This document shows positions 1-933 of a stretch of DNA of 933 nt, one piece after another. The translations under genes were made by a program, and so were the position numbers. Positions within the stretch are counted from its first letter, which is position 1. Every line of letters starts with the position of its first letter. Under the pieces are notes generated by a model. It did not search any database, was not told the DNA's origin, and saw nothing but the letters and a program-made list of their open reading frames with translations. Source of the DNA: Escherichia coli (GTDB lineage: Bacteria; Pseudomonadota; Gammaproteobacteria; Enterobacterales; Enterobacteriaceae); NCBI RefSeq assembly GCF_003334335.1, contig NZ_QOWQ01000137.1; one strand, written 5' to 3'.

Positions 1-933
1 AAAGTGATCCGCACAGAACGGGTAAAAAAAGCCTGTACAAAATGTGACTGCATCGTTGAAGCACCGGCACCATCCCGTCCGATAGAGCGTGGTATCGCGG
101 GCCCGGGGTTACTTGCCCGCGTGTTAACGGGAAAATACTGCGAACATCTGCCACTGTATCGTCAGAGTGAAATCTTTGCCCGCCAGGGTGTCGAACTGAG
201 CCGTGCCTTACTCTCCAACTGGGTTGATGCGTGCTGCCAGTTAATGACTCCGCTGAATGATGCCCTGTACAGTTATGTGATGAACACCCGCAAGGTTCAC
301 ACTGATGACACACCAGTAAAAGTACTGGCACCGGGCAGGAAGAAGGCGAAAACAGGATATATCTGGACGTATGTCCGGGATGACCGAAATGCCGGTTCGC
401 CAGAACCTCCGGCGGTCTGGTTCGCCTACTCACCGGACCATCAGGGTAAACATCCGGAGCAACACCTTCGTCCCTTCCGGGGTATCCTGCAGGCAGATGC
501 GTTCGCAGGTTACGATCGGCTGTTCAGTGCCGAACGTAAAAGCGGCGCGTTGACGGAAGCAGGATGCTGGGCTCATGCACGGCGCAAAATCCACGATGTA
601 TATATCAGTACCAAAAGCGCGACGGCGGAAGAAGCACTGAAACTAATCGGTGAACTGTACGCCATTGAGCACGAAATACGCGGGTTGCCGGTGTCTGAAC
701 GCCTGGCGGTCAGGCAAATGCAGAGTAAACCGCTACTGACTTCCCTGTATAAGCTGATGCAGGAGAAAGAACACACGTTATCGAAAAAATGCCGTCTGAG
801 AGATGCGTTCCGGTATATCAGGAAGCACTGGATTGCGTTGTGCAACTTCTGTGATGACGGTCTGGCGGAGGCGGACAATAACACAGCGGAAAGAGCGCTT
901 CGTGCAGTCTGTCTCGGAAAGAAAAATTACGTG
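1..933 (+). CDS. tnpC: IS66-family transposase (ORF3/TnpC), internal fragment; both the N-terminus and C-terminus lie outside the window
   Basis: Seen in sequence: frame 1 is open across all 311 codons with no stop. Translation begins KVIRTERVKKACTKCDCIVEAPAPSRPIERGIAGPGLLARVLTGKYCEHLPLYRQSEIFARQGVELSRALLSNWV and continues through ...HTDDTPVKVLAPGRKKAKTGYIWTYVRDDRNAGSPEPPAVWFAYSPDHQGKHPEQHLRPFRGILQADAFAGYDRLF...EAGCWAHARRKIHDV...IGELYAIEHEIRG...LAEADNNTAERALRAVCLGKKNY. Established knowledge: these blocks (LPLYRQ HTH, YVRDDR, VWFAYSPDxxGxHP, ILQADAYxGY, CWAHARRK, GELYAIEAEIRG, IDNNxAEN-ALR, GRKNW) are the conserved signature of IS66-family transposases such as those of IS66 and ISEc8. No start codon with a ribosome-binding site and no stop codon is present, so the gene is truncated by the window on both sides. 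The exact IS name is not determinable without a database search. Confidence 0.93.
34..51 (+). other. C-terminal half of the IS66 transposase zinc-ribbon motif (C-x2-C-x-C)
   Basis: Seen in sequence: codons 12-17 encode C-T-K-C-D-C (tgt aca aaa tgt gac tgc). Established knowledge: IS66-family transposases carry an N-proximal zinc-finger domain built from paired CxxC motifs; the first pair would lie upstream of the window. Confidence 0.6.
91..225 (+). other. Helix-turn-helix DNA-binding region of the IS66 transposase (contains the LPLYRQ motif)
   Basis: Seen in sequence: codons 31-75 encode GIAGPGLLARVLTGKYCEHLPLYRQSEIFARQGVELSRALLSNWV. Established knowledge: the 'HLPLYRQ...G(V/I)ELSR(A/S)TL' block is the conserved HTH region of IS66-family transposases. 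Domain boundaries are approximate. Confidence 0.7.
298..900 (+). other. DDE-type catalytic core of the IS66 transposase, including the CWAH motif
   Basis: Seen in sequence: D102/D103 (nt 304-309, HTDDTPV), D166 (nt 496-498, ILQADAFAGY), CWAH at codons 189-192 (nt 565-576, followed by ARRK), and E297 (nt 889-891, within ADNNTAERALR at nt 874-894). All are in frame and intact. Established knowledge: IS66-family transposases have a DDE-like core with a conserved CwAH-rR motif between the second D and the E. Which of D102/D103 is catalytic cannot be decided by eye. Confidence 0.7.

Follow-up and report, generated by a model that had tools for sequence, protein, structure and literature searches.

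The window, by which we mean the whole 933-nt stretch of DNA that was analysed, is very probably the central two-thirds of tnpC of ISEc43, an IS66-family insertion sequence of 2,532 bp that transposes with an 8-bp target duplication. Frame 1 of the plus strand is open over 311 codons, i.e. over all 933 nt, while frame 1 did not stay open in any of 20,000 base-shuffled versions, and the translation corresponds to codons 167-477 of a 537-aa IS66-family transposase (TnpC). A megablast of the window against all complete E. coli genomes (n = 5,426) returned matches in 4,293 records from 3,045 genomes. The sole 100% match among the complete E. coli genomes listed was found on the chromosome of strain S1-CAM-02-A (NZ_CP145707.1; locus L001 below), in a gene annotated as ‘tnpC: IS66 family transposase’. 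Many further copies were 99.6-99.9% identical to the window and carried the RefSeq product name ‘IS66-like element ISEc43 family transposase’ or IS66 family transposase; the name ISEc43 is taken from the product names of these copies and not from the ISfinder reference sequence. The window itself holds internal tnpC only, and the upstream genes and the genomic context were taken from public records in which a copy is identical or nearly so (Table 1).

Table 1 Features of the window, of TnpC and of the loci that carry identical, near-identical or related copies of the element.
Feature	Location	Strand	Remarks
Internal part of tnpC (ISEc43, DDE transposase gene)	window 1..933	+	open frame, 100% match, Pfam/NCBIfam
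zf-IS66, C-terminal end	window 1..48	+	second Cys pair C-T-K-C at nt 34-45
Most of the DDE_Tnp_IS66 catalytic domain (TnpC 196-477)	window 88..933	+	Pfam PF03050
HxDDTPV, Asp268-Asp269	window 304..309	+	invariant in three paralogs; candidate first catalytic Asp
LQADA, Asp332	window 496..498	+	invariant in three paralogs; candidate second catalytic Asp
Base A (Lys346)	window 538	+	G (Glu) in L002 and L003; inside a variable 4-residue insertion
CWAHARRK, TnpC 355-362	window 565..588	+	between the second Asp and the Glu
DNNTAE, Asp458-Glu463	window 874..891	+	candidate catalytic Glu463
LZ_Tnp_IS66	TnpC residues 60-130		Pfam E = 6.2e-13
zf-IS66	TnpC residues 138-182		Pfam E = 8.7e-12
DDE_Tnp_IS66 (PF03050)	TnpC residues 196-486		Pfam E = 2e-94
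DDE_Tnp_IS66_C	TnpC residues 494-530		Pfam E = 5e-15
Whole element	L001 10615-13146		2,532 bp; ends GTAAGCG...CGCTTAC
Terminal inverted repeats	L001 10614-10638 and 13123-13147		25-nt arms, 84% complementary
tnpA	L001 10700-11125		NCBIfam match
tnpB	L001 11122-11472		NCBIfam match
tnpC	L001 11503-13116		NCBIfam match
Pathogenicity island	L001, L002 (E. coli chromosomes)		sat/sigA autotransporter toxin gene upstream; iha, iutA, iucDCB downstream
S88 island	L003 (S88 chromosome)		small helix-turn-helix regulator gene on one side, island-type genes on the other
Copy on pO86A1 (NC_008460.1)	L004 6001-8532		99.5% copy; conjugative IncF, enteroaggregative virulence plasmid
Copy in lambda-like phage Lambda_4C10 (LR595861.1)	L005 4001-6532		92.5%-identical relative

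The initial annotation had placed tnpA and tnpB upstream of tnpC. This order was confirmed in every full-length copy inspected, the two genes lying directly 5' of tnpC, and the terminal GTAAGCG...CGCTTAC of the S1-CAM-02-A element was also found in L002-L005. A single ATGA holds both the tnpA stop and the tnpB start, an overlap which suggests that translation of the two genes may be coupled, and the gap between the tnpB stop and the tnpC start is 30 nt. TnpA matched the NCBIfam IS66 TnpA models (NF047595 at 84.2 bits, cut-off 74). TnpB, a protein of 116 aa, matched IS66_TnpB alone in NCBIfam at the default E-value limit (119.9 bits, cut-off 50, E = 3e-35), with no hit to an IS200/IS605 model. 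On these grounds a reading of the upstream tnpB as the RNA-guided nuclease of IS200/IS605 was ruled out, in agreement with the earlier caution that the two proteins are distinct; the IS200/IS605 TnpB has roughly 400 aa and a RuvC-like nuclease domain, and shares with the IS66 protein nothing beyond its name. Literature searches yielded no recent mechanistic work on IS66 TnpB. Scanning the whole element for promoters and terminators gave one promoter-like and one terminator-like site, fewer than in shuffled controls. Outside the element, a perfect 15-nt inverted repeat with a 15-nt spacer (L001 13647-13691) lies just 3' of the stop of iha, which is on the opposite strand, and may be the iha terminator.

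The identity of the transposase was supported by its domains (Table 1) and by a score of 443 bits against the NCBIfam model transpos_IS66 (NF033517; cut-off 180). For the motifs, ISEc43 TnpC was aligned with two other IS66-family TnpC proteins from the fetched loci, 60% and 51% identical to it. The second cysteine pair of the zinc finger was invariant across the three paralogs, as were D458, N459, N460 and E463 (DNNxxE). We take Asp268/269, Asp332 and Glu463 to be the catalytic triad, an assignment made from family knowledge. In CWAHARRK the residues C, A, H, A, R, R and K were invariant and W was retained in two of the three proteins; we take this motif to be the IS66-family signature (CwAH-rR, between the second Asp and the Glu) of Gourbeyre et al. 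2010. Searching the PDB by sequence with TnpC and with TnpB (E up to 1) gave zero related solved structures. Peptides from the E. coli IS66 TnpC have been reported to bind the beta sliding clamp, and the same study describes clamp-binding motifs in TnpB and/or TnpC of the IS66 family (PMC3971601).

In the transposition mechanism that we propose, TnpC would bind both ends of the element through its N-terminal leucine-zipper and zinc-finger regions, and the Asp-Asp-Glu triad would cleave the ends and transfer them to target DNA opened with an 8-bp stagger. The 8-bp direct duplication would arise when this stagger is repaired, while TnpA, a small helix-turn-helix protein, and TnpB, also small, would serve as accessory factors.

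We also compared the window base by base with two ISEc43 copies. It differed from the copy on the S88 chromosome (L003) at four positions (107, 538, 541 and 832), all of them amino-acid changing (G/E, K/E, S/G and I/V), and from the copy in strain NMBU-W12E19 (L002) at position 538 alone, so that the A at this position (Lys346) is the one nonsynonymous base by which the window departs from both. Four nonsynonymous differences are too few to interpret and do not demonstrate purifying selection. An antisense ORF of 103 aa (window 573-884) was treated as a chance ORF because the limits of the antisense open frame vary across three related tnpC genes, and an Rfam scan of the window (E up to 1) returned zero RNA families.

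The target sites showed that the element moves as others of its family do. The S1-CAM-02-A copy carries a perfect 8-bp duplication, CAAAATGG, at both flanks; the S88 copy, at a different site, is flanked by the 8-bp duplication TTATAGAC, and the relative in the lambda-like phage by TATAATGG. Empty sites were then sought with queries in which both flanks were joined through one copy of the 8-mer. At least 768 genomes had the S1-CAM-02-A site contiguous and without the element, with 99.2% identity among the 15 matches listed, and the S88 site was contiguous in 2,731 genomes, with 100% identity in all 15 listed. The 8-mer is present once at these empty sites. Since both copies have duplications of their own and unoccupied counterparts in other genomes, they are genuine insertions, i.e. 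true transposition events with an 8-bp duplication. Distinct sites, duplications and empty sites together make up the population data from which ISEc43 would appear to be an active element. An ISEc43 copy inside SGI1 (SGI1-B-Ec1) has likewise been described with an 8-bp direct repeat (PMC6531882), and IS66 itself has the tnpABC organisation and an 8-bp duplication (PMC6778807).

An alternative explanation is an intact source copy that took part in recombination with a second copy, with a deletion, inversion or replicon fusion as the outcome, and now has mismatched flanks. The 99.5% copy on pO86A1, a plasmid with two places matching the window, is a case in favour: it has no target duplication, its left flank ending in ...GGAAAGAGT and its right flank beginning with GAATGCCT..., and the simplest reading suggests recombination or deletion after insertion. 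Partners for such exchange are available, with a median of 2 and a maximum of 45 matching places per match-holding E. coli genome, and deletion mediated by IS66 through recombination between copies has been documented in Agrobacterium (PMC6778807). However, the copy that is 100% identical to the window combines a perfect 8-bp duplication with a matching empty site elsewhere; we consider a recombined source copy unlikely. The window's own copy probably has the same flanks as this match.

It is less probable still, and in our view very unlikely, that decay or truncation has reduced the source copy to a remnant of an IS66 element, a pseudogene fragment that lacks functional ends or accessory genes. 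Such material is common: IS66 fragments and truncated or frameshifted copies surround the intact copies in L001-L003, strain ATCC 25922 holds a frameshifted ISEc43 tnpC, and a place spanning 80% or more of the window exists in only 3,520 of the 4,293 E. coli records with a match. The open state of 311 of 311 codons, which was lost in every shuffle, stands against this explanation, as does the fact that the only 100% match listed is an intact element with its target duplication. The initial annotation had named a lone truncated remnant, or flanks of core housekeeping genes, as observations that would speak against a mobile context; neither applies to the S1-CAM-02-A element, which is complete and has no core housekeeping genes as neighbours. 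That the transposase has been domesticated for a host function can be practically dismissed, as no point in support of it was found and mobility is indicated by the ends and accessory genes, by the duplications, by the several insertion sites and by the occurrence on plasmids and phages.

With the window read as internal tnpC of a mobile ISEc43 copy, the surroundings of the public copies agree with the mobile or accessory context that had been predicted for it: a pathogenicity island, the S88 island, pO86A1, a lambda-like phage and, from the literature, SGI1 (PMC6531882). In S1-CAM-02-A and NMBU-W12E19 the element lies between sat/sigA and iha-iutA-iucABCD (aerobactin), amid a TraF fragment and several remnants of IS3 and IS66 elements. 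On the S88 chromosome the island-type genes encode inovirus Gp2 family and zinc-ribbon proteins, and another IS66 element is located 3 kb away. The pO86A1 element is placed between the agg4/hda fimbrial genes with a group II intron and the genes of the aat dispersin exporter. In the lambda-like phage it follows the tail-fibre gene, with the sitABCD metal-transporter genes just downstream; the tail-fibre gene has lost its last 43 codons to the element (642 aa annotated, 685 aa after in-silico removal of the IS).

The expectation that cargo or a disrupted gene would be found nearby held in its first part, given sat/sigA, iha and the aerobactin genes, but not in its second at the best-matching site. 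A split gene was sought at the site shared by S1-CAM-02-A and NMBU-W12E19 by joining the flanks, and the target proved to be non-coding DNA between older IS66 remnants, approximately 110 bp beyond the right end of one and upstream of another. In S1-CAM-02-A, the stretch at about L001 10070-10614 holds the C-terminal part of a different IS66 transposase gene, with its right end ...GAGCCGCTTAC, and L001 13155-13560 holds the C-terminus of a third IS66 element, frameshifted and with an end of its own.

The two sister strains differ in several details of this island. In NMBU-W12E19 a different IS66-family element of 2,757 bp, with tnpABC on the minus strand, is nested in tnpA of the ISEc43 copy (L002 8228-10984); its TnpC is 51% identical to that of ISEc43, and it has an 8-bp duplication of its own, TCTTTATC. 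S1-CAM-02-A has the same ISEc43 insertion without the nested element. In S1-CAM-02-A, sat/sigA is split by an IS3 element (L001 2268-7461) and iucD is frameshifted (L001 21476-22797), both genes being intact in NMBU-W12E19. In ATCC 25922 the site occupied in S1-CAM-02-A is empty, and the frameshifted ISEc43 copy of this strain (L006 11875-14265) lies about 4.5 kb from the equivalent site, beyond iha. Near the S88 site, too, further IS66 elements lie at a distance of at most a few kb.

These neighbourhoods raise the idea that IS66-family elements preferentially target resident IS66-family DNA or its immediate surroundings, and favour A/T-rich 8-mers ending in AATGG, which we regard as unlikely. 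The basis for clustering is the target close to an IS66 remnant in S1-CAM-02-A, the nesting in tnpA in NMBU-W12E19 and the IS66 elements near the S88 site, and two of the three duplications of ISEc43-type elements end in AATGG. The clustering could equally reflect passive accumulation in islands that tolerate insertions, the two being indistinguishable at three or four sites.

Compared with known systems, the window is closest to the RefSeq-labelled ISEc43, also represented in SGI1-B-Ec1 (PMC6531882), with 99.6-100% identity, the same tnpA-tnpB-tnpC layout and the same 8-bp duplication. The founding and functionally studied members of the family are IS66 and IS679 (Machida 1984 and Han 2001, cited in PMC6778807). 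Both IS66, from an Agrobacterium Ti plasmid, and IS679, from E. coli, likewise have three genes, with the DDE transposase third, and an 8-bp duplication, but they are different family members from ISEc43, and the further TnpC paralogs of the family found in the ISEc43 loci are only 51-60% identical in protein. The ends of IS66 and IS679 presumably also begin with GTAA. Membership of the element in the family was evident from the DDE_Tnp_IS66 domain, the tnpA-tnpB-tnpC order with its overlap, the GTAAGCG repeats, the 8-bp duplication and the CwAH-rR motif.

The distribution of the sequence also pointed to accessory DNA. In the complete E. coli genomes, 2,183 of 8,918 matching places (24%) were plasmid-borne, compared to a plasmid share of a few percent of the DNA, itself a rough estimate (28.0 Gb in total minus about 5,426 chromosomes of roughly 5 Mb). 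The element is thus, on this rough estimate, several-fold enriched on plasmids. In PLSDB, 3,401 plasmids matched the window, mostly from Escherichia, Klebsiella and Shigella. Among phage records, only 12 had a match. Roughly 330 E. coli records hold copies with an identity of at least 99%.

Overall, the ISEc43 window is already known and ordinary, part of a named, widely annotated element that behaves as its family does. Thousands of public genomes and plasmids of E. coli already carry an ISEc43 annotation; the window represents a routine copy of the element and adds nothing new on the biochemical roles of IS66 TnpA and TnpB. In practice the element is useful for marking accessory DNA, and recombination between its copies possibly drives rearrangements within virulence islands and plasmids.
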